Positions 3,352 through 18,077 are shown, counted from the stretch's first letter. The stretch is DNA of 64,000 nt from Mycolicibacterium smegmatis (GCF_001457595.1 NZ_LN831039.1:1652729-1716728); one strand, 5' to 3'. The notes: generated from the letters alone by a model not told the origin. A program made the numbers and translations.

Positions 3352-3379
3352 TGAACTGGATCACGCCCAACGTCGTATC
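3352..3379 (+). promoter_or_regulatory. putative SigL-type (ECF) promoter upstream of sigL: TGAACT-N16-CGTATC
   Basis: -35 TGAACT at 3352-3357, a 16-nt spacer, -10 CGTATC at 3374-3379, 17 nt before the sigL ATG. It is a near match to the SigL consensus found exactly at 4765-4792. Confidence 0.4.
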
Positions 3380-3396: not shown

Positions 3397-3939
3397 ATGG
3401 AGGATCCGGAGGCCGCCATGATGCGGGCGCTCTATGACGAGCACGCCACCGCACTGTGGCGATACGCGCTGCGCCTGACCGGCGACCCCGCGCGTGCCGA
3501 GGATGTCGTGCAGGAGACATTGCTGCGCGCCTGGCGCCACCAACCCGACCTCCGCACCGGTGGCGGAGCCGACGGTATCGCCGGTCCCGACCGCTCGCCA
3601 CGGGCCTGGCTTTTCACCGTGGCACGCAACATGATTATCGATGAACGACGGAGTGCTCGTTTCCGCAACGAGACCGACGTCCCCGACCCAGAACAGGTGG
3701 CCGATCACGCCACCTCCGACCAGGTGGATACCGCGTTGGACCGGCTTTTGTTGGGCACAGCTCTACGCCAGCTCTCCGATGACCATCGTGCGGTGATCCG
3801 ACGCGCCTACTACCAGGGACTGACCACCGGGCAGATCGCGGCCGAGCTGCAGATACCCGAGGGAACCGTGAAATCGCGGCTGCACTACGCCGTGCGCGCA
3901 CTGAAACTGAGCTTGCAGGAGATGGGGGTGACACGATGA
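3397..3939 (+). CDS. sigL: ECF RNA polymerase sigma factor SigL (sigma-70 regions 2 and 4)
   Basis: ATG 3397 is preferred over TTG 3391 (GGAGG at 3386-3390). Region 2.2 (ALWRYALRLTGD) and region 4 HTH (GLTTGQIAAELQIPEGTVKSRLHYA). Order map-sigL-rslA as in Rv0734-Rv0736. Confidence 0.85.
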   Translation: MEDPEAAMMRALYDEHATALWRYALRLTGDPARAEDVVQETLLRAWRHQPDLRTGGGADGIAGPDRSPRAWLFTVARNMIIDERRSARFRNETDVPDPEQVADHATSDQVDTALDRLLLGTALRQLSDDHRAVIRRAYYQGLTTGQIAAELQIPEGTVKSRLHYAVRALKLSLQEMGVTR

Positions 3940-4667
3940 CTCAATCCGAACCCCATCGAATCGGGCCAGTCGACCCCGACCGATATTCGACATGGGACGC
4001 GGCGTATGTGCTCGGATCGCTGTCCAGCGAGGAGCGCCGCGAATACGAGGCGCACCTGACGACGTGCCCGCAGTGCCGCGCGGGCGTCGCCGAACTGAGC
4101 GGCATGCCCGCGCTGCTGTCGCTGATCGACCTCGACGACGTGCGCGCCATCGACGGCGAGCAGCCCGATTCGCCACTGCGCCCCGAGGTGCTGGACTCCG
4201 TGATGGCCGAGGTGGGCGCGCGCAGGCGCCGCACCCGGTGGCTGACGACATCGGTCGCCGCGCTGGCCGCGGTGCTGCTGGCGGTCGGGATCGTCGTGCT
4301 GGCCCGGCCCGAGACCTTCGGCCTGCAGCGCGGAACCGAACAGCAGACCGCGCAGATGCTGGAGATGTCGAAGGTCGCGCAGACGCCGATCAACGCCAGC
4401 ATCGCGCTCACGGGCTACACCTGGGGCACCCGCATCGACATGGCGTGCTCGTACGGCGACTGGGGGAGCAAGGGCGCCCAACCGCAGGATCTGGGCATGG
4501 TGGTTGTCGGCCGCGACGGCAGCCGTGAACAGGTGGCCACCTGGCTGGGGCTCTCCGGGGCGACCGCACTGCCCAGTGGCAACACCCAGAAGCCGATGGA
4601 CGACATTGCCGCCATCCAGATGGTGTCGGTCGCCGACGGGAAAGTTCTGCTCGAAAAGAAGCTCTGA
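3936..4667 (+). CDS. rslA: zinc-binding anti-sigma factor RslA (ZAS, one transmembrane segment)
   Basis: ATGA overlap with sigL. ZAS motif H-x3-C-x2-C (EAHLTTCPQCRAG). Central TM segment (LTTSVAALAAVLLAVGIVVLA). Confidence 0.8.
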   Translation: MTQSEPHRIGPVDPDRYSTWDAAYVLGSLSSEERREYEAHLTTCPQCRAGVAELSGMPALLSLIDLDDVRAIDGEQPDSPLRPEVLDSVMAEVGARRRRTRWLTTSVAALAAVLLAVGIVVLARPETFGLQRGTEQQTAQMLEMSKVAQTPINASIALTGYTWGTRIDMACSYGDWGSKGAQPQDLGMVVVGRDGSREQVATWLGLSGATALPSGNTQKPMDDIAAIQMVSVADGKVLLEKKL

Positions 4668-4764: not shown

Positions 4765-4792
4765 TGAACCGGCCCTGCGCACCCCTCGTGTC
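4765..4792 (+). promoter_or_regulatory. SigL-consensus promoter TGAACC-N16-CGTGTC driving the 4822-9296 operon
   Basis: Exact -35 TGAACC (4765-4770) and -10 CGTGTC (4787-4792) separated by 16 nt, about 30 nt upstream of ATG 4822. Matches the consensus described for M. tuberculosis SigL-dependent promoters. Confidence 0.55.
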
Positions 4793-4821: not shown

Positions 4822-6570
4822 ATGGCCAATGGGTGCAGAGTGGTGGACCACATCGTCGGCTGTCTCGCACAGAGCGGGATCAGCCACATCTTCGGGGTCG
4901 ACGGGGCCAACATCGAGGACCTCTACGATGCGGCGTTCTTTCGTGACGACATCACCGCGGTGCTTGCCAAACACGAATTCTCCGCTGCCGCAATGGCAGA
5001 CGGATACAGCCGCAGCGGCGCCGGGATCGGTGTGGTGGCCGCGACCTCGGGAGGCGGCTGCCTCAACACGGTGCCGGGGCTCGGCGAATCGCTCGCCAGC
5101 CGGGTCCCGGTGCTCGCGCTGATCGGACAACCGCCCACGACGCTCGACGGACAGGGTTCTTTCCAGGACACCAGCGGCGACAACGGCGCGCTCGACGCGC
5201 TTTCGTTGTTCTCGGCCGTGTCGGTGTACTGCCGCCGGGTGCTCTCACCCGATGCGATCCACACCGTGCTGCCGGAGGCGCTTGCCGCCGCACGTACCGG
5301 CGGACCGGCAGTGTTGTTGCTGCCCAAGGATGTTCAGCAGGCAGTGCTCGGTGAGCACGTCAACGGGCACGTTCCCGTCATGCAGCTGGGAACCCGGATC
5401 TCCGAGCTGACCATGATGGTGCGGGCACTGCGCCGCGCCGACGGGCCCATCACGATCTTCGCCGGGGAGCAGGTCGCCAGGGACGATGCCCGCGCCGAAC
5501 TGGAACGGCTGCGCGCTACCCTGCGCGCCCGTATCGCCACCGTGCCCGACGCGAAAGACGTCGGCGGCACGCCGGGTTTCGGGTCGTCGTCGGCCCTCGG
5601 GGTGTGCGGGGTGATGGGACATCCGGGTGTCGTCGCGGCAGCCGCGGGAAGCGGGGCGTGCCTGCTGGTGGGGACCCGCATGACCGTGACCGCGCGCGCC
5701 GGCCTCGACGGTGTGCTGGGTTCGGTGCCCACGTACTCGATCGGCTCGCAGCAGCCGTACGTGCCCGCCACGCACGTGCACACCGACGACCTGCGCGGCG
5801 CGCTGACGATGCTGGCCGAGGCGCTGACCGGCAACGGCAGGCCGCACCAGATCCGCGTCCCGGATGTGGTGCCGCACACCGAACTACCGACACCACCCCA
5901 TGACGGGCCCGGCATCCGGTACCGCGACGCGATGCGCGTGCTCGACCGGGCGCTGCCCGACGGTACCGACATCGTCGTCGACGCGGGCAACATCGGGGCG
6001 TCGGCCATCCACCACCTGCCGGTGCGCCGCGACGGACGCTTCCTCGTCGCGCTCGGGATGGGCGGCATGGGGTACAGCTTCGGCGCGGGCATCGGCATGA
6101 CCTTCCACCGCGCCGCCCGGCCCGACCCGCACGGGCAGCGGCGTACCGTGGTGATCGCCGGTGACGGGTCGTTCTTCATGCACGGCATGGAAATTCACAC
6201 CGCCGTGCAGTACCGGCTCCCCATCACCTTCCTGCTGTTCGACAACCACGCACACGCCATGTGCGTCACACGCGAGCAGTTGTTCTACGGCGACCGCTAC
6301 ACCTACAACCGATTCGGCCCGAGCCATCTCGGCGCCGGACTCGCCGCGATGCTGCCCGGACTGACCGCGCTGGACGTCGACGACATCGATGATCTGTCCG
6401 CCGCACTCGACGCCGCGTTGCGCACCGACGGCCCGGTAGTCATCAGCGTCGAATGCTCGCCCGACGAAATCCCCCCGTTCGCAGCGTTTCTCGGCACCGC
6501 AACCGAAATCGCAACCGCAACCACCCCGAACACACAGGAGAACGATTCCCATGCCACTGCCCGCGCTTGA
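4822..6570 (+). CDS. thiamine-pyrophosphate-dependent enzyme (acetolactate-synthase / sulfoacetaldehyde-acetyltransferase superfamily)
   Basis: 582 aa. N-terminal Pyr domain (GVDGANIEDLYDA). C-terminal TPP-binding GDG-x24-N-like region (VVIAGDGSFFMHGMEIHTAVQYRLPITFLLFDNHAH). Confidence 0.8.
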   Translation: MANGCRVVDHIVGCLAQSGISHIFGVDGANIEDLYDAAFFRDDITAVLAKHEFSAAAMADGYSRSGAGIGVVAATSGGGCLNTVPGLGESLASRVPVLALIGQPPTTLDGQGSFQDTSGDNGALDALSLFSAVSVYCRRVLSPDAIHTVLPEALAAARTGGPAVLLLPKDVQQAVLGEHVNGHVPVMQLGTRISELTMMVRALRRADGPITIFAGEQVARDDARAELERLRATLRARIATVPDAKDVGGTPGFGSSSALGVCGVMGHPGVVAAAAGSGACLLVGTRMTVTARAGLDGVLGSVPTYSIGSQQPYVPATHVHTDDLRGALTMLAEALTGNGRPHQIRVPDVVPHTELPTPPHDGPGIRYRDAMRVLDRALPDGTDIVVDAGNIGASAIHHLPVRRDGRFLVALGMGGMGYSFGAGIGMTFHRAARPDPHGQRRTVVIAGDGSFFMHGMEIHTAVQYRLPITFLLFDNHAHAMCVTREQLFYGDRYTYNRFGPSHLGAGLAAMLPGLTALDVDDIDDLSAALDAALRTDGPVVISVECSPDEIPPFAAFLGTATEIATATTPNTQENDSHATARA

Positions 6571-7231
6571 AGACATCACCACCCACCGGGGCACCGCCGA
6601 TCCGATCGACGGGCTGATCCGCATCGAGACCTCACCGAAGGAGGCCGCGACCCCGATCATCATGGAGATGATGCGGTCGGTGTACCCGCACGAGCAGGTG
6701 TTCGGTGAGTACTGCACGGTCAACGACTACATCGCGTGCCCGCCCGACGAACTGTTCGACTACCTCGCCGATACCCGAAGCCTCGAGGAGTGGACCTACA
6801 GTCTGCGGGGATTCGCCACCACCGAGGAGCCCGGACTGTGGGTGGCCCGCGACCGCCTCGGTGAGGGCAGCGGTGGACCCGGCAGCGCGATCTACACGCG
6901 CACGGTCGCCAACCGTGACGCGATGACCGTCGACTACCACTGCGCCTGGGATCAGGGCAAGCACCTGTGGATGATCTACCTGATGCGCATCGTCGACGCC
7001 CAGGTGGTGTTCGACAAGCCGGGATCGGTTGTGCTGTGGACCAATTGCCACCATCCCTTCTACGACGAGAACCCGTACCCCGAGACCGCGCCGCCCGGGC
7101 GACCGGTCTGGGTCGGTGACTTCTGGGACATGTTCGGCCCCGGTCACCTGCTGGAACTGAAGAACCTCAAGGCGATCGCCGAGTACCGGCACCGCAACGG
7201 ACTGCCGCTCACCCCGGCCTGGATGAAATGA
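6551..7231 (+). CDS. hypothetical protein (226 aa, no recognisable family)
   Basis: ATG preceded by AGGAG. Overlaps the upstream stop by 20 nt. Coding-like codon usage. Embedded in a translationally coupled operon. Cys/His-containing motifs CPPDE and CHHPFYDENPYPE. Confidence 0.55.
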   Translation: MPLPALEDITTHRGTADPIDGLIRIETSPKEAATPIIMEMMRSVYPHEQVFGEYCTVNDYIACPPDELFDYLADTRSLEEWTYSLRGFATTEEPGLWVARDRLGEGSGGPGSAIYTRTVANRDAMTVDYHCAWDQGKHLWMIYLMRIVDAQVVFDKPGSVVLWTNCHHPFYDENPYPETAPPGRPVWVGDFWDMFGPGHLLELKNLKAIAEYRHRNGLPLTPAWMK

Positions 7232-8262
7232 GCATCCCCATGAACACCACCACCCCCGTGAGCCTCGTCGACGTTTCGACCTACCTTCCCGGTGAACCGA
7301 TCGGCGCCGAGTACTACGCGCAGTTCGCCGAGACCGACGACCTGCGGGACAACCTGATGTTCCGCGCACCGCGGTTCCGGCACCACGTCGCGCCCGACGA
7401 GACCGCCACCGACATGATCGAGCGCGCCGCGGCCGGACTGATCGAACGCCACGGCGCCGACACGGTGCAGGGTGCCGACGTGCTGATCACCCACACGCAG
7501 ATGCCCGACATGCCGTTCTACGGCGGCGGCGGCGGCATCGCGCACCGCCTCGGCATGAAACCGAACTGGGTGATCGACCTGCACAACGGAGGCTGCGCGG
7601 CGTTTGTCCTCGGCATGAAAGTGGCCCGTACGCTGCTGGCCTCGGGCGAAGGCCACACCGCGGTCATCGCGGTGGCGCAGAACGCCGCGGGCCAGATCTT
7701 CGACCAGGAGACCATCCGCCGCAAGGCCCAGGCGTCGGTGCCCGGCGACGGCGCGGCCGTCGGCCTGGTGACGGTGTCGGACGCCTCACCGATCCTGGAC
7801 GTCGAGTGCCGCACCTACGGCGAGTACGCCGGTGACATGACCATCGCGTCGGATCCGCCACGCAAGTGGTGGCAGCCCGGACCGGGGGAGGGCTACATCG
7901 GGTTCACGGAAAGCAAGATCACCAAGGTGCTGGCCCGCGGCAACCGGCAGGTGCCCGAGGTGTCGTATGCCGTGTGCGACCGGATCGGCATCCACCCCAG
8001 GGACATCGACCTGTTCGTCACCAACCAGCCCAACCGGGTGTTCCTGCGCAACTGGCGCGAGGCCCTTGAGTTGCCTGCCGAACGCCACGTCGACACATTC
8101 GACACGTGCGGCAACCTCTTCGGCGCGGGCATCCCGATCAACTTCGACCGCGCGGTCACCGACGGGCGCGTGAAGGCCGGTGACACGGTGCTGATGGCGG
8201 CGTTCGCGCACGCAGGGGACTTCGCCGGCGCGGCCGCGGTGCGCTGGGGAGGCCGGGACTGA
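7228..8262 (+). CDS. KAS-III (FabH)-like condensing enzyme
   Basis: ATGA overlap. Thiolase fold with active-site Cys context (HNGGCAAFVLG) and a C-terminal FabH-like block (GDTVLMAAFAHAGDFAGAAAVRW). 344 aa. Confidence 0.75.
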   Translation: MSIPMNTTTPVSLVDVSTYLPGEPIGAEYYAQFAETDDLRDNLMFRAPRFRHHVAPDETATDMIERAAAGLIERHGADTVQGADVLITHTQMPDMPFYGGGGGIAHRLGMKPNWVIDLHNGGCAAFVLGMKVARTLLASGEGHTAVIAVAQNAAGQIFDQETIRRKAQASVPGDGAAVGLVTVSDASPILDVECRTYGEYAGDMTIASDPPRKWWQPGPGEGYIGFTESKITKVLARGNRQVPEVSYAVCDRIGIHPRDIDLFVTNQPNRVFLRNWREALELPAERHVDTFDTCGNLFGAGIPINFDRAVTDGRVKAGDTVLMAAFAHAGDFAGAAAVRWGGRD

Positions 8263-9296
8263 TGGCCGCCCCGCGTGGCGCCCTGGTGGAGGCGGTCGAC
8301 GCGCTTCCCCCGGCGGTCAACCCACTGGCGTTGTCACTCAACGAGTTTCCGTATCCGCCGCTACCCGCGGTGAAGGCCGCGCTGAGCGCCGCGGTGGATG
8401 CGGCCAACCGCTATCCGGAGTTCCTTCCCGAACGGTTGCGGTCGCTGATCGCCGGCCGGGTAGGCGTCGACGAAAGGCAGGTGATCATCGGCGTCGGCGC
8501 GACCGGCGTCATCATGCAGGTGCTGCACGCGGTCACCAGCCCCGGTGACACCATGGTGATGTCGGCGCCCACGTTCGACGGGTACCCGATCTTCGCGCAG
8601 ATGGCCCGGCTGCGGTCGGTGACCGTCGACCTGGACGTGTACGGCCACCACAATCTGCACGCGATGGCCGACGCCGCGCGCGATGCCCGGGTGGTGGTGG
8701 TGTGCCGTCCGCACAACCCCACCGGCACGATCGAACCCGCCGAGGACATCGAGCGGTTCCTGGAGAGCATCCCCGAGGACACCGTGGTGCTGCTCGACGA
8801 GGCATATGCCGAATTCCTCGGCCCCGCCAACCGGATCGACGGGCCGCGGCTGGTCGAACGGTTCCGCAATGTCGTGGTGGTGCGCACGTTCTCGAAGGCC
8901 TACGGTCTGGCCGGCCTGCGGATCGGCTACGGCTTCTGCGCACCGCAACTGGCGCGTCAACTGTGGACCATGCAGTTGCCGTTCGGGATCGGGCTTCCCG
9001 CACTGGTCGCGGTCGCGGCATCTTATGACGCCGAAGGCCAGCTGCGGCAACGCATCCGGATGATCTCCGCCGAGCGCCGGTTCCTGCAGATGCGGCTGCG
9101 CTCGATGGGCGTGTACAGCACCGACGGGCAGGCCAACTTCGTGTACCTGCCCGCGACGGGCGTGCCGTGGCACGACGTGTTCGACGATGCGGGGCTCAAG
9201 GTGCGGCACTATGCCGACGGCGGCGTGCGCATCACCGTGGGCACCAGGGAATCCACGCGTGAGGTGCTGCGCGCAACGCGCCTGGCTTTGCGGTGA
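8262..9296 (+). CDS. class I/II pyridoxal-phosphate aminotransferase (HisC-like)
   Basis: ATG overlaps the previous stop. PLP-lysine context (VVRTFSKAYGLAGLRIGY). 344 aa. Confidence 0.8.
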   Translation: MAAPRGALVEAVDALPPAVNPLALSLNEFPYPPLPAVKAALSAAVDAANRYPEFLPERLRSLIAGRVGVDERQVIIGVGATGVIMQVLHAVTSPGDTMVMSAPTFDGYPIFAQMARLRSVTVDLDVYGHHNLHAMADAARDARVVVVCRPHNPTGTIEPAEDIERFLESIPEDTVVLLDEAYAEFLGPANRIDGPRLVERFRNVVVVRTFSKAYGLAGLRIGYGFCAPQLARQLWTMQLPFGIGLPALVAVAASYDAEGQLRQRIRMISAERRFLQMRLRSMGVYSTDGQANFVYLPATGVPWHDVFDDAGLKVRHYADGGVRITVGTRESTREVLRATRLALR

Positions 9297-9331: not shown

Positions 9332-9853
9332 GTGCCCTCGTCACCGGACAGCTTCGACCACGCCGACCACACGGATCCCATCGCCCTGGCACGCGCCAAC
9401 TGGGAGGCGGCCGGGTGGGGTGACGTGGCCGACGGCATGGTGGCGGTGACCTCGGTCATGCGGGCCCACCAGATCCTGCTGGCCCGCGTCGAGAACGCAC
9501 TGCGGCCCTACGATCTGAGCTTCTCGCGGTTCGAACTGCTGCGCCTGCTGGCCTTCAGCCGGTCCGGGGCCCTGCCCATCACCAAGGCGTCGGACCGGCT
9601 GCAGGTGCACGTCACCAGCGTCACGCACGCCATCCGGCGGCTGGAGGCCGCAGGCCTGGTGGAACGCGTCCCGCACCCCACCGACGGCCGCACCACGCTG
9701 GTGCGGATCACCGACCTGGGGCGTTCGACCGTCGAGGACGCGACCGTGACGCTCAACAAGCAGGTGTTCGCCGATGTGGGGATGTCCGACGAGGAGTCGC
9801 GCGCGCTCGCGGCGTCGATCGAGACGTTGCGCCGCAATTCGGGTGACTTCTGA
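9332..9853 (+). CDS. MarR-family transcriptional regulator
   Basis: Winged-helix block LPITKASDRLQVHVTSVTHAIRRLEAAGLVERVPHPTDGRTTLVRITDLG. Confidence 0.8.
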   Translation: MPSSPDSFDHADHTDPIALARANWEAAGWGDVADGMVAVTSVMRAHQILLARVENALRPYDLSFSRFELLRLLAFSRSGALPITKASDRLQVHVTSVTHAIRRLEAAGLVERVPHPTDGRTTLVRITDLGRSTVEDATVTLNKQVFADVGMSDEESRALAASIETLRRNSGDF

Positions 9854-9904: not shown

Positions 9905-11146
9905 TCACGGCAGTTTCGTCGAGTTCGGCGCGGGCTCGTGCGAGGGCAGCGGGATGGTCGCGGTGACCGCGGTGCCCGCGCCGGGCCGTGAGCGGATGTT
10001 GAGCCGCCCGCCCACGATCTCGGCGCGTTCGGCCATCGACAGCAGGCCGTACCCGCTCATCTCGTCACTGCCGAGCGGATGTTCGAATGTGTCGAAACCG
10101 ATTCCGTCATCGACGATTTCGAGTCTCGCGATACCGTCCTCGACCGCGAAGGTCAGACGCGCGGTGGTGGCGCGGGCATGCTTGACGACGTTCTGCAGGC
10201 ATTCCTGCGCGATGCGGTAGAGCGCGAGCTCGATGTGGTCGGGCACGCGGGTATCGGCCAGGTCGACGTCGAGGTCGACCTGGGGGATCGACCTGGCCAG
10301 GCTCGCCAGCCCGCCCGAGAGGCCGAGGTCGTCGAGCACCGGCGGGCGCAGCCCGCTGATCGCGGCGCGCGCCTCCTGCAGCGTCAGGTCCGCGAGTTCG
10401 CGGGCCTTGCCCAGCTGTTCGGCCACGGCCCGCGGGTCGTCGGCCGCGCGGGCCGCGGCGTCGAGCCGGTAGGACAGCGTCACGAGCCGCTGTGAGATGC
10501 CGTCGTGGATGTCGGCCGCGAGCCTGCGCCGCTCGAGTTCCTGTGCCTCGATGACCTGCTCGACGAAGTTCTCGTGCGCGCGTTCGCGGGCCACGAGTTG
10601 CCGGTGCAGACGGGCCTGGTGCAACGCTCCGGCGATGAGCCTGCCGATCACCACGAGCAATTCCACATCACGCGGCGTGAACTCGCGTCGCCGCACGGTG
10701 TGCACGTTGAGCACGCCGACCAACCCGCCCGGCTCGGCCTCCATCGGCACCGACACCATCGACGTGAAATCCCGCCCGCGCAGCGACTCGAACGGCATGT
10801 AGCGGGGATCGGCCTCCTTGTCGTGGCTGATCACCACGGGCTCGCAATGATCGGCGACCCATCCGGAGATGCCCTGCCCGATGGGCAGCCGGATCTTGCC
10901 GACCTCGCTGTCGAACGGCGGTGTGGCCCCGGCCAACGTCAGCGACCGGTCGGAATCGTCGAGCACGTGCACGAAGCACACGTCGGTGCCGGTCGCCGCG
11001 GTGATCATGCGCGCCGCGGCCGCGGCGAGCGGTTCCACCCCCGGCCCGCTGGACGCGGCCTGGATGAGCTCGCGCAGCAACGCCAGCTCGCGGTCGGCGT
11101 CGACGAGGTCGCGCACGGGTTTCACGGCGCGTTTCGCGGCGTTCAC
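9905..11146 (-). CDS. sensor histidine kinase, GAF domain plus HisKA_3/HATPase (NarL-partner type)
   Basis: GTG start overlapping the regulator stop (GTGA). GAF domain. H-box HDGISQRLVTLSYRLD. HATPase_c G-boxes. Confidence 0.85.
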   Translation of the reverse strand: MNAAKRAVKPVRDLVDADRELALLRELIQAASSGPGVEPLAAAAARMITAATGTDVCFVHVLDDSDRSLTLAGATPPFDSEVGKIRLPIGQGISGWVADHCEPVVISHDKEADPRYMPFESLRGRDFTSMVSVPMEAEPGGLVGVLNVHTVRRREFTPRDVELLVVIGRLIAGALHQARLHRQLVARERAHENFVEQVIEAQELERRRLAADIHDGISQRLVTLSYRLDAAARAADDPRAVAEQLGKARELADLTLQEARAAISGLRPPVLDDLGLSGGLASLARSIPQVDLDVDLADTRVPDHIELALYRIAQECLQNVVKHARATTARLTFAVEDGIARLEIVDDGIGFDTFEHPLGSDEMSGYGLLSMAERAEIVGGRLNIRSRPGAGTAVTATIPLPSHEPAPNSTKLP

Positions 11147-14891: not shown

Positions 14892-16412
14892 CTACTTCAT
14901 GGTCGGGATGACGAACTCGGCGCCATCCTTGATTCCGGACGGCCACCGCTCGGTGACGGTCTTGGTCTTGGTGTAGAACTGGATCGAGGCCGGTCCGTGC
15001 TGGTTGAGATCGCCGAAGCCGGAACGCTTCCAGCCGCCGAAGGTGTGGTAGGCCACCGGAACCGGGATCGGCACGTTCACGCCGACCATGCCCACCTGGA
15101 CCCGCGAGACGAAGTCGCGGGCGGCGTCGCCGTCACGCGTGAAGATCGCCACGCCGTTGCCGTATTCGTGCTTGGTGGGCAGGCTCAGCGCCTCTTCGTA
15201 GTCGTGCGCGCGCACGATGCACAGCACCGGGCCGAAGATCTCGTCGGTGTAGATCGACATGTCGGTCTTGACGTGGTCGAACAGGGTGGGGCCGATGAAA
15301 TAGCCGCCCTCGAGGCTCTGATCGTCGAACGTGAGTTCGTCGGTGGCGCGTTCACGGCCGTCGACCACCAGTTCGGCGCCGGCCTCGACACCCTGGCCGA
15401 TGTAGTCCTTGACGCGGTTGAGCGCGGCCTCGGTGACCAGCGGGCCGTAGTCGGCCTTGGGGTCGAGGCTGTGGCCGACGCGCAGCTGCTTGACGCGCTC
15501 GATGAGCCTGGCGCGCAACCGGTTTGCGGTTTCCTCGCCCACCGGAACCGCGACGCTGATGGCCATGCAACGCTCGCCGGCGGAGCCGTAGCCCGCGCCG
15601 ATCAACGCATCGACGGCCTGGTCGAGATCGGCGTCGGGCATGATGATCATGTGGTTCTTCGCGCCGCCGAAGCACTGCGAGCGCTTACCGTGGGCGGCCG
15701 CGGTCGAGTAGATGTACTGCGCGATGTCGGAGCTGCCGACGAAGCCCACGGCCTGCACGGTCGGGTGCGTGAGGATCGCGTCGACGGCTTCCTTGTCACC
15801 CTGCACGACCTGGAAGACGCCCGGCGGCAGACCGGCCTCGATGAACAGCTCGGCCAGGCGCACCGGCACCGATGGGTCACGCTCAGAAGGCTTGAGGATG
15901 AAGGCGTTTCCGCATGCGAGCGCGGGGCCGGCCTTCCACAGCGGGATCATGGCCGGGAAGTTGAAGGGCGTGATCCCCGCGACGACGCCGAGGGGCTGAC
16001 GGATCGAGTAGACGTCGATACCGGTGCCCGCGCCCTCGGTGAACTCGCCCTTGAGCAGGTGCGGGATGCCGACGGCGAACTCGATGACCTCGATGCCGCG
16101 CTGGATGTCGCCCAGCGAGTCGGCGACGGTCTTGCCGTGCTCGATCGAGAGCAGTCGGGCCAGCTCATCGGCGTTCTGGTTCACCAGGTCGATGAACTTC
16201 ATGAGTACGCGGGCGCGGCGCTGCGGGTTGTAGGCGGCCCACTCCTTCTGCGCCTCGGCGGCGCCGGTGACCGCGGCGTCGACGTCTGCTGCTGAGGCCA
16301 GCAGCACCTGAGCCTGCACCTCGCCGGTGCTGGGGTTCATCACGTCGGCGGTACGGGTCGAGCCCGCGCTGGTGCGCCGGCCGTTGATGAAGTGCTGGAT
16401 CTGTGTGGTCAT
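14892..16412 (-). CDS. mmsA: methylmalonate-semialdehyde dehydrogenase (CoA-acylating)
   Basis: ALDH superfamily with catalytic Cys context (FGGAKNHMIIMPDAD) and GSTAAG-like motifs. 506 aa. Confidence 0.92.
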   Translation of the reverse strand: MTTQIQHFINGRRTSAGSTRTADVMNPSTGEVQAQVLLASAADVDAAVTGAAEAQKEWAAYNPQRRARVLMKFIDLVNQNADELARLLSIEHGKTVADSLGDIQRGIEVIEFAVGIPHLLKGEFTEGAGTGIDVYSIRQPLGVVAGITPFNFPAMIPLWKAGPALACGNAFILKPSERDPSVPVRLAELFIEAGLPPGVFQVVQGDKEAVDAILTHPTVQAVGFVGSSDIAQYIYSTAAAHGKRSQCFGGAKNHMIIMPDADLDQAVDALIGAGYGSAGERCMAISVAVPVGEETANRLRARLIERVKQLRVGHSLDPKADYGPLVTEAALNRVKDYIGQGVEAGAELVVDGRERATDELTFDDQSLEGGYFIGPTLFDHVKTDMSIYTDEIFGPVLCIVRAHDYEEALSLPTKHEYGNGVAIFTRDGDAARDFVSRVQVGMVGVNVPIPVPVAYHTFGGWKRSGFGDLNQHGPASIQFYTKTKTVTERWPSGIKDGAEFVIPTMK

Positions 16413-16571
16413 GACATCCGTCCAAAAGAGGGTGTGCGCGGTGATATCGCTCGGTGTGATCCGAGATACTTGGATATCCTAGTAATTCGTCGGAGGGTTT
16501 GGCAATAGCCCCTCGGTGCGCCCGGGGCGACGCCCTTTAAATTACGGAACCGTATCGTTATTATTTTGTCC

Positions 16572-18077
16572 ATGGCAGCCACCGATTGCGACGTGATCGT
16601 CGTGGGCGCCGGGCCGACCGGCCTGACCCTCGCGTGTTCCCTGCGCCTGCACGGACTTTCAGTTCGTGTGCTCGACGGCGCGGCAGGCCCCGCGACGACC
16701 TCGCGTGCGAACTTCCTGCACGCACGCGGTTCGGAGGTGCTCAACCGGATCGGAGCCCTTGGCCCGCTGCCGGACGAGTCCCTGCGGGCCATGCGCATCA
16801 CCAACTACCTCGGTGACCGACCGGTGATGACGCTGGCTTTCGGCGATCCCGGCATGCGCACGGCCGCACCACCCATGGTGGTGTCACAGGCCAGGGTCGA
16901 AGCCGCGCTGCGGGCCCGGCTTGCCCGGCTCGGGGTGGAACCCGAGTGGGGCAGGAAGGTGGCCGGTGTCCGGCAGGCCGGGGACCGGGTGGTCGCCGAT
17001 CTCGCCGACGGTGTGCAGGTGAGCGGACAGTGGCTCGTCGGGTGCGACGGCACGTCGAGCGTCACGCGGGAGCAGGTGGGCATTCCGTTTCCCGGCGTCA
17101 AACTGTCGGAACGTTTTCTGCTGGCCGACATCCACCTCGACTGGGCGGTGGACCGCGGCGGGACCACCGGCTGGATCCATCCCGATGGCGTGGTCGGCGC
17201 GATGCCGATGCCGAGCGGGGACGGCCGCAACGACCTGTGGCGCCTGTTCGTCTACGACCCCGCGCTCAACCGAAAGCCCAGCGACAGTGAGATCCTGCAG
17301 CGCATCGAACAGATCGTCCCGTACCGCACCGGCCGCGCCATCACGATCGGGCAGCCGGAATGGTTGTCGATGTTCACCGTGCACCGCCGCCTGGCCCAGT
17401 CATATCGGCGCGGACGCGTGCTCATCGCAGGCGACGCCGCGCACGCCCACGCGCCGTTCGGCGGGCAGGGAATGCTGACCGGCATCGGAGACGCCGAGAA
17501 CCTCGCGTTCAAGCTTGCACTCGTGATCCGCGGACTCGCGGCCGATGCCCTGATCGACACCTACGAGGCCGAACGCAGACCTCTGGCCACCGAGGTGCTC
17601 CGCGGTACCAGCGCGATCACGCGGGTCAACGTCGCGAGCAATCCGGTCGGCCGGTTCCTGCGCGACCGGGTGGCCACCCGGATCTTCGGGCTGCCCTTCG
17701 TTCAACGGTGGACCACCTACACGGCGTCGCAGCTGTGGGTCAGTTACCGCAAGGGCCCGCTCGGCGGACACGGGCGCAAGCCGCGTCCCGGTGACCGGAT
17801 CGACGACCGGCCCTGCACCCGCGCCGACGGCGCCGCCACCAGGCTGCACAACGAACTCGCCGGGCGCTGGGCGCTGCTGTGGCCGCGAGACGCCCCGGCC
17901 CCTGGTGCATCCCTACTCGCCCGGCTCGGTGACTTCGGCGTGACGCTGCGGCACGACGGGGCCGAAGCCATGCTGATCCGCCCCGATGCGCACCTCGCGT
18001 GGCGTGGCGCCCCCGACGACACCGCTGGTCTCGACCATTGGCTGGCAAAGGCTTTGGGCTCCGGGGCGGTGCGATGA
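16572..18077 (+). CDS. FAD-dependent aromatic-ring monooxygenase (PheA/TfdB-type)
   Basis: GxGxxG (VIVVGAGPTG), DG and GD motifs (LIAGDAAHAHAPFGGQGMLTGIGDA). ATG 16572 is preferred over TTG 16566. Confidence 0.85.
   Translation: MAATDCDVIVVGAGPTGLTLACSLRLHGLSVRVLDGAAGPATTSRANFLHARGSEVLNRIGALGPLPDESLRAMRITNYLGDRPVMTLAFGDPGMRTAAPPMVVSQARVEAALRARLARLGVEPEWGRKVAGVRQAGDRVVADLADGVQVSGQWLVGCDGTSSVTREQVGIPFPGVKLSERFLLADIHLDWAVDRGGTTGWIHPDGVVGAMPMPSGDGRNDLWRLFVYDPALNRKPSDSEILQRIEQIVPYRTGRAITIGQPEWLSMFTVHRRLAQSYRRGRVLIAGDAAHAHAPFGGQGMLTGIGDAENLAFKLALVIRGLAADALIDTYEAERRPLATEVLRGTSAITRVNVASNPVGRFLRDRVATRIFGLPFVQRWTTYTASQLWVSYRKGPLGGHGRKPRPGDRIDDRPCTRADGAATRLHNELAGRWALLWPRDAPAPGASLLARLGDFGVTLRHDGAEAMLIRPDAHLAWRGAPDDTAGLDHWLAKALGSGAVR

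Follow-up and report, generated by a model that had tools for sequence, protein, structure and literature searches.

We analyzed a four-gene cassette, MSMEG_1488-1491, in a 64-kb stretch of Mycolicibacterium smegmatis DNA (the window, meaning the whole stretch at its full length). The cassette occupies positions 4822-9296, where four plus-strand open reading frames (ORFs) follow one another with an overlap at each junction. All four ORFs and their junctions were read from the sequence and agree with the description in an earlier note on this DNA.

4822..6570, + strand: thiamine diphosphate (ThDP)-dependent acyloin synthase, CqsB3/NzsH-like, MSMEG_1488; 582 amino acids (aa); Pfam TPP_enzyme_N, _M and _C; CqsB3 match
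6551..7231, + strand: carbazole synthase-like cyclase, CqsB2/NzsI family, Bet v1/SRPBCC fold, MSMEG_1489; 226 aa; match to PDB 6ipv
7228..8262, + strand: condensing enzyme resembling β-ketoacyl-acyl carrier protein synthase III (KASIII), CqsB1/NzsJ-like, MSMEG_1490; 344 aa; Pfam ACP_syn_III and ACP_syn_III_C
8262..9296, + strand: class I/II pyridoxal phosphate (PLP) aminotransferase, CqsB7/NzsD-like, presumed to convert Trp to indole-3-pyruvate, MSMEG_1491; 344 aa; Pfam Aminotran_1_2

The start codon of the second gene (ATG 6551) sits 20 nt within the end of the first, with AGGAGA 9 nt 5' of the ATG. The second and third genes share an ATGA overlap (7228-7231), and the third and fourth a TGATG overlap (8260-8264) with GGGAGG on its 5' side; for the third gene, most public annotations begin at an alternative in-frame ATG, at 7240. 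A promoter and terminator scan found no meaningful intrinsic terminator or sigma-70-type promoter between the cassette genes. The proposal made in the earlier note, of a translationally coupled, accessory operon for small-molecule biosynthesis, is supported. Exact copies of all four proteins are found in several M. smegmatis assemblies and near-identical copies in mc2155, whose locus tags were assigned by matching gene lengths to a published expression table (PMC8931766). The GC content of the cassette (0.66-0.71) is flank-like, and there is no compositional sign of recent horizontal transfer. Although M. smegmatis is the standard mycobacterium of the laboratory, public annotation names the four products only as acetolactate synthase, SRPBCC or hypothetical protein, 3-oxoacyl-acyl carrier protein (ACP) synthase III (FabH-like), and histidinol-phosphate aminotransferase (HisC-like).

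The 226-aa product of MSMEG_1489 had been described as having no recognizable family, and profile searches and structure prediction on 6551-7231 were run. Pfam gave no match, and NCBIfam gave a marginal match to ScyC alone (E value 0.0016; 18 bits, vs a cut-off of 400). A search of PDB chains returned one strong match, CqsB2 of Streptomyces exfoliatus (6ipv; E 6e-45, residues 37-217). An AlphaFold model of the protein (mean predicted local distance difference test score [pLDDT], 77; predicted template modeling score [pTM], 0.80) also had 6ipv_A as its top PDB match (E 1e-20), and the other structure matches were all Bet v1/PYR-PYL folds. Ring A of carquinostatin and neocarazostatin is closed by cofactor-free carbazole synthases, namely CqsB2 and the orthologous NzsI; these adopt a Bet v1/aromatase-cyclase fold, and the proposed catalytic residues of CqsB2 are Glu105, Tyr144, Tyr172, His206, and Glu209 (PMC7466098). 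When the window protein was aligned with CqsB2 and 80 mycobacterial homologues, its residues D101, Y143, Y171, H199, and E202 fell opposite E105, Y144, Y172, H206, and E209 of CqsB2, and the counterparts of Tyr144, Tyr172, His206, and Glu209 were identical in the window protein and in 80/80 of the mycobacterial homologues. The family is small (clustering at 50% leaves 169 representatives, of which many are fragments), and its members carry the public names "SRPBCC family protein" or "hypothetical." Judged by sequence, the 226-aa protein is a homologue of the CqsB2/NzsI-type carbazole synthases, belonging to a small family that has no Pfam entry and is nevertheless recognizable.

For the comparison of the whole set, a Streptomyces locus was reached through a distant homologue and exact-sequence look-ups; its cyclase is 100% identical to the crystallized CqsB2 over residues 42-224. 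The genes of this reference locus are ordered KASIII, cyclase, ThDP enzyme, SQS_PSY prenyltransferase, KASIII, ACP, aminotransferase, NUDIX, and cytochrome P450, a set that agrees with the published cqsB1-B7. In BLASTP, the best counterpart of each window protein in the reference locus was a different skeleton-forming enzyme: CqsB3, CqsB2, CqsB1, and CqsB7. The ThDP enzyme matched CqsB3 with 34% identity over 580 aa (E 4e-72), which beats every PDB chain match; the nearest solved structures were BbmA (8x3x) and CsmA (8x3z), as named by their depositors, at E 2e-44 or weaker, and nothing relevant was found in the literature on the BbmA/CsmA pathways. Its translation contains Glu52 and the GDGS...DN ThDP motif. 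The cyclase was 41% identical to CqsB2 (E 2e-49). The KAS-like enzyme was closer to CqsB1 (26% identity, E 7e-42) than to the classical KASIII, CqsB5 (E 3e-16). Its active site reads Cys123-Asn266-Asn296, in which the Cys that accepts the acyl group ("NGGCAAF") and Asn296, the second oxyanion residue ("CGNLF"), are retained, and its motif is xQPN as in CqsB1, vs HQAN. The aminotransferase was 41% identical to CqsB7 (E 1e-79) and carries an SK(A)YG PLP-lysine motif; its best PDB match was 4r2n, deposited as a putative phenylalanine aminotransferase. Housekeeping identities were assessed with the NCBIfam equivalog cut-offs. The ThDP enzyme scored 186.7 bits against acolac_lg (TIGR00118; cut-off, 538), the KAS-like enzyme 94.8 bits against fabH (TIGR00747; cut-off, 292), and the aminotransferase 246.3 bits against hisC (TIGR01141; cut-off, 276.6). 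With all three below their cut-offs, acetohydroxyacid synthase (AHAS), FabH, and HisC were ruled out as identities of the cassette enzymes.

In the Streptomyces pathway, the roles of the four counterparts have been reconstituted biochemically: CqsB7 converts Trp to indole-3-pyruvate in the first step, CqsB3 carries out an acyloin condensation of indole-3-pyruvate with pyruvate, CqsB1 performs a decarboxylative acylation using an acyl thioester, and CqsB2 cyclizes the CqsB1 product (PMC7466098). We consider it probable (about 0.7) that MSMEG_1488-1491 constitute a minimal, self-contained pathway to a carbazole skeleton, of the carquinostatin/neocarazostatin (cqs/nzs) type. The aminotransferase would convert L-tryptophan to indole-3-pyruvate, which would be joined with pyruvate into an acyloin. 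The KASIII-like enzyme would load an acyl group onto Cys123 and then use it for C-acylation of the decarboxylated keto acid, and the CqsB2-like cyclase would close ring A onto indole C2, with aromatization to a 1-alkyl-2-methyl-3(,4)-oxygenated carbazole. The likeness to the cqs/nzs clusters extends to counterparts for all four proteins (CqsB7/NzsD, CqsB3/NzsH, CqsB1/NzsJ, and CqsB2/NzsI), to the retained catalytic residues of the cyclase, and to the QPN-type KAS motif. The mycobacterial cassette differs in its gene order (ThDP enzyme, cyclase, KAS, aminotransferase) with overlapping codons, in its control by an extracytoplasmic function (ECF) sigma/anti-sigma pair, in a triad His-to-Asn change in the KAS-like enzyme and a Glu105-to-Asp change in the cyclase, and in its host order, Mycobacteriales. 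Furthermore, the M. smegmatis cassette lacks counterparts of the ACP (CqsB6), the acetoacetyl-ACP KASIII (CqsB5), the prenyltransferase (CqsB4), and the P450. The dedicated ACP and KASIII that supply 3-hydroxybutyryl-ACP are present in the Streptomyces locus and are accessory in cqs/nzs, outside the conserved three-enzyme core. No ACP (PP-binding), second KASIII, prenyltransferase, or P450 gene was found in the cassette or among its called neighbors.

The acyl donor would most likely be an ordinary fatty acyl-coenzyme A (CoA) or acyl-AcpM, because the cassette is without genes for a dedicated ACP, an acetoacetyl-ACP synthase, or a prenyltransferase. From the mechanism in PMC7466098, the acyl carbonyl in cqs chemistry should become ring C1 and the remaining chain the C1 substituent, so that a plain C16-C18 donor would give a 1-alkyl-2-methyl carbazole; such a donor would also explain the absence of a dedicated ACP system. 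The product would be a lipocarbazole- or carbazoquinocin-like, membrane-soluble compound, and we put a long-chain alkyl product at a little short of an even chance.

The cassette lies downstream of a sigma/anti-sigma gene pair. The genes on its 5' side are secY, adk, map, and those for a SigL-subfamily ECF sigma factor and a zf-HC2 anti-sigma factor, and on its 3' side there is a MarR gene and then a GAF histidine kinase gene. The features that bear on regulation are as follows.

3352..3379, + strand: SigL-type promoter of sigL, TGAACT-N16-CGTATC, presumed autoregulatory; 2 mismatches to TGAACC-N16-CGTGTC
3397..3939, + strand: ECF sigma factor SigL, MSMEG_1486; Sigma70_r2 and r4; NCBIfam NF007227 at 272 bits vs a cut-off of 202
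3936..4667, + strand: anti-sigma factor RslA, MSMEG_1487, zinc-associated; zf-HC2; H40-x3-C44-x2-C47 read from the translation
4765..4792, + strand: SigL-type promoter of the cassette, -35 TGAACC, 16-nt spacer, -10 CGTGTC; 30 nt ahead of ATG 4822
9332..9853, + strand: MarR regulator Ms_1492 (MSMEG_1492), homologue of Rv0737; MarR domains; probably outside the cassette transcript

The published SigL consensus consists of a -35 TGAACC and a -10 CGTGTC (PMC2703886, Table 1), and both hexamers of the cassette promoter equal it. The match at 4765-4792 is the sole exact occurrence of TGAACC-N16-CGTGTC within the window, in agreement with the SigL-type promoter that had been noted ahead of the cassette.

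Relatives of the cyclase were collected with one genome per species, giving at least 591 stretches, and the best 80 of these, all from Mycobacteriaceae, were analyzed. The order ThDP enzyme-cyclase-KAS-aminotransferase was colinear in 71/80 of these other mycobacterial loci, which is more than chance would give. The neighborhood comparison suggested in the earlier note thus finds a four-gene unit conserved across tens of mycobacterial species, and strain-specificity gives way to a cassette that is widespread in Mycobacteriaceae. In 57 loci, the cassette lies directly 3' of sigL-rslA. A SigL motif precedes the ThDP gene in 54 of these 57 linked loci, at a median distance of 58 nt, and the spacers differ while the hexamers do not. 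By this comparison, the cassette promoter motif is a phylogenetic footprint, because the spacer sequences diverge while the hexamers stay constant. A SigL motif was also present about 40 nt ahead of sigL itself (54/59 loci) in 7/18 cassettes not linked to sigL, and in Nocardia. Control of the cassette by the SigL-type promoter is, in our estimation, very likely.

In M. tuberculosis, oxidation of the RslA zinc site to a disulfide lowers its affinity for SigL (PMC2877774), and the M. smegmatis cassette would stay near-silent until SigL is freed from the redox-sensitive zinc anti-sigma factor RslA. Expression was taken from published mc2155 RNA sequencing (RNA-seq) data for treatment with BRACO-19 and TMPyP4 (PMC8931766, Table S1), given here as log2 fold changes in that order. 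Both sigL (+1.39 and +0.82) and rslA (+1.49 and +0.49) rose, as did MSMEG_1488 (+2.59 and +1.43), MSMEG_1490 (+1.35 and +0.25), and MSMEG_1491 (+1.93 and +1.32). The flanking genes, map (+0.21 and -0.27) and the MarR gene MSMEG_1492 (-0.21 and +0.22), stayed flat with BRACO-19. The response to TMPyP4 was weaker than that to BRACO-19 and in the same direction for MSMEG_1486, MSMEG_1488, and MSMEG_1491. Basal expression of the cassette, in log counts per million (logCPM), was 1.6-2.9, vs 8-9.7 for secY, adk, and map (PMC8931766). The low logCPM and the fold changes together indicate almost no cassette expression in culture and an increase in step with sigL.

The MarR gene starts 35 nt past the aminotransferase stop codon, with no terminator between them. 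Its co-transcription with the cassette was considered and rejected, since the RNA-seq data show no co-induction. The Ms_1492/Rv0737 regulator is reported to bind and activate the sigL-rslA promoter, in a study in which an "Ms_1488 promoter fragment" served as the negative control for MarR DNA binding (PMC13002591). The carbazole product might conceivably be the ligand of Ms_1492. Where a locus has both the MarR and the aminotransferase genes, the former lies at most 300 nt past the latter in 53/59 cases.

The M. tuberculosis SigL-RslA system resembles that of M. smegmatis in its -35 TGAACC and -10 CGTGTC elements, in the zinc-binding HxxxCxxC anti-sigma factor, and in the downstream MarR gene (Rv0737/Ms_1492). 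It differs in its reported targets, pks10/pks7 and membrane or secreted proteins, among which the cassette does not figure. To judge from locus numbering and PMC13002591, M. tuberculosis seems to have no such cassette in the interval from rslA to Rv0737. The earlier statement that unrelated genes follow rslA in M. tuberculosis was imprecise, in that Rv0737, near sigL-rslA, is the homologue of Ms_1492 (PMC13002591); its conclusion that the cassette is accessory stands. Given the shared MarR neighbor, the difference is therefore a clean presence or absence of the cassette between conserved neighbors.

A second class of cassette occupies other genomic positions, in some cases as a further copy within one genome. 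The sigL-unlinked cassettes carry extra genes, for ACP, a fatty acyl-AMP ligase (FAAL)-like AMP-binding enzyme, acyl-CoA dehydrogenase, flavin monooxygenase, MmpL transporters, and O-methyltransferases (L079, 8692-16662; L075, 9960-15620; L056) or for a P450, and most of them are without a SigL motif. The gene content of the unlinked cassettes suggests that the acyl donors are fatty acyl groups and that lipids are exported, and the elaborated ones probably make exported alkyl-carbazole lipids. A bare four-gene cassette without an adjoining sigL occurs in Tsukamurella sp. 8F and in Nocardia uniformis; the Tsukamurella cassette (L088, 12942-15823) adjoins thiG, thiS, thiO, and thiE together with a two-component system. 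In some genomes, a second sigL-like/rslA-like pair with a second cassette stands beside an rve-family transposase gene, and another cassette copy, with a P450 gene, stands beside a phage-type integrase gene (L046, 4933-12457; L061; L077, 10745-13962). The module of sigma factor, anti-sigma factor, and cassette appears to be mobile. In Mycobacterium shimoidei, a SigL-type motif and a short remnant that resembles the ThDP gene N terminus lie 3' of sigL-rslA and run into an intact cyclase gene (L080, 7783-8666). This locus contains no KAS or aminotransferase gene, and at the locus end, 8 kb away (16100-16621), another ThDP gene begins, again with a TGAACC-N16-CGTGTC. The cassette of this slow grower looks as if it is decaying or rearranged.

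Several observations weigh against a carbazole pathway under SigL control. The identities to characterized enzymes are just 26-41%. The cyclase has Asp where CqsB2 has Glu105, both in the window protein and across 80/80 mycobacterial homologues. In the KAS-like enzyme, the Cys-His-Asn triad is incomplete ("VTNQPN," vs "ITHQPN" in CqsB1 and a Kitasatospora homologue), and without the triad His, decarboxylative C-acylation by this enzyme is unproven. The chief biochemical uncertainty is whether Asn could stand in for His in stabilizing the decarboxylation intermediate. The SigL dependence of cassette transcription is correlative, the inducers having been G-quadruplex ligands, with no defined oxidants among them. 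Furthermore, MSMEG_1489 itself changed by +0.60 with BRACO-19 (not significant, at very low counts) and by -0.22 with TMPyP4 (PMC8931766). The searchable literature, which leaves most subscription-journal papers outside, yielded no functional study of MSMEG_1488-1491, no mycobacterium linked to carbazole, and no reported product of the cassette. As for the KAS-like enzyme, the His-to-Asn change is shared by 80/82 mycobacterial loci, Tsukamurella, and Nocardia, and the His is kept in Streptomyces and Kitasatospora; from this distribution, the change is a fixed trait of Mycobacteriales and no strain-level defect.

The alternative that best survives is that the same four enzymes act on tryptophan and yield a product other than a carbazole. 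In that case, the His-to-Asn KAS would be an O-acyltransferase or would form another C-C bond, and the SRPBCC protein would, like ScyC, form a different ring fused to the indole or would merely chaperone the acyloin or ester. The two active-site changes, shared across Mycobacteriales for the triad His and found as Asp at position Glu105 of the cyclase, speak for such a product, as does the weak ScyC match, and CqsB1 products are known to rearrange spontaneously into indole esters if cyclization fails (PMC7466098). In scytonemin biosynthesis of cyanobacteria, ScyA and ScyC offer a partial parallel, in that a ThDP acyloin synthase takes indole-3-pyruvate as its substrate and a cyclase then builds a ring on the indole; ScyC, however, makes a cyclopentane-fused indole with no KASIII step, and the match of the cassette cyclase to it is marginal. 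Four of the five cyclase catalytic residues are invariant, with CqsB2 as the best match in both sequence and structure, and the KAS-like enzyme keeps its Cys, Asn296, and the CqsB1-type QPN motif. Plain-alkyl carbazoles are, moreover, known from the related genus Tsukamurella. We regard a non-carbazole product as unlikely.

An amino-containing acyl or polyketide-like metabolite, with the amino group installed last by the aminotransferase, was the product foreseen in the earlier note. Domain composition by itself permits it, and aminated carbazoles for which late transamination has been proposed do exist (PMC7466098). The aminotransferase would be expected to remove an amino group and not to add one, because CqsB7, with which it shares 41% identity, is the first enzyme to act and deaminates Trp; a compound of the tricyclic carbazole class is expected instead. 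An amino-metabolite would also leave the CqsB2-like cyclase without a role, and the cassette has no polyketide synthase (PKS) or ACP genes, making this outcome quite improbable. A chance cluster of redundant housekeeping paralogues (acetolactate synthase, FabH, and HisC), as the public names of the genes might suggest, is hardly credible, given the subthreshold equivalog scores, the KAS-like enzyme without its catalytic His, near-zero expression in growing cells, the movement of the genes as a fixed four-gene unit that includes the cyclase, and the apparent absence of the cassette between rslA and Rv0737 in M. tuberculosis.

Returning to the carbazole pathway, known natural products indicate which class to expect from it. 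The lipocarbazoles of Tsukamurella pseudospumae, carazostatin, and the carbazoquinocins are 1-alkyl-2-methyl carbazoles, the class expected from an unmodified fatty acyl thioester donor. They are antioxidant, lipophilic carbazoles (PMC7466098, PMC11350554), and the lipocarbazoles, antioxidants with oxygenation at position 3 of the carbazole, come from the genus Tsukamurella (PMC7466098, PMC11387468). In the Tsukamurella genome with the bare cassette, the cyclase is 75% identical to that of M. smegmatis; the strain compared is other than the published lipocarbazole producer, which tempers the parallel. In the searchable literature, we found no published gene cluster for lipocarbazoles, carazostatin, or carbazoquinocins and no report of such a compound from M. 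smegmatis.

M. smegmatis and many of its relatives probably make an undescribed carbazole that is stress-induced and lipid-soluble. A more specific proposal, which taken as a whole we hold to be doubtful, is that the most conserved cis-linked target of the redox-sensing SigL-RslA switch would produce a radical-scavenging lipid of the lipocarbazole type, an inducible membrane antioxidant, from Trp, pyruvate, and a cellular fatty acyl thioester. The cassette would then be the missing gene cluster for the 1-alkyl-carbazoles (lipocarbazole, carazostatin, and carbazoquinocin), would employ a Cys-Asn-Asn KASIII without a dedicated ACP, and would have disappeared or decayed in the lineage of M. tuberculosis and in certain other slow growers. 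If the carbazole assignment is true, it provides a concrete, widely conserved biochemical target for SigL, whose physiological output is poorly understood, and it points to mycobacterial production of an inducible lipophilic antioxidant or bioactive alkaloid. The cassette is also a candidate gene set for the lipocarbazole/carazostatin class and, on the same assumption, a minimal set of four genes for making carbazoles enzymatically.

Two further features of the neighborhood were observed. In most loci, a GAF-HisKA_3 histidine kinase gene (MSMEG_1493, 9905-11146, - strand, in the window) and a GerE-type response regulator gene (L001, 14593-15255) directly follow the MarR gene; no evidence tying the MSMEG_1493 kinase or the response regulator to the cassette was found. 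Just 5' of secY, on the opposite strand, lie four tandem LCM-family (PF04072) methyltransferase genes (L001, 41-3702), mostly ahead of the window start.

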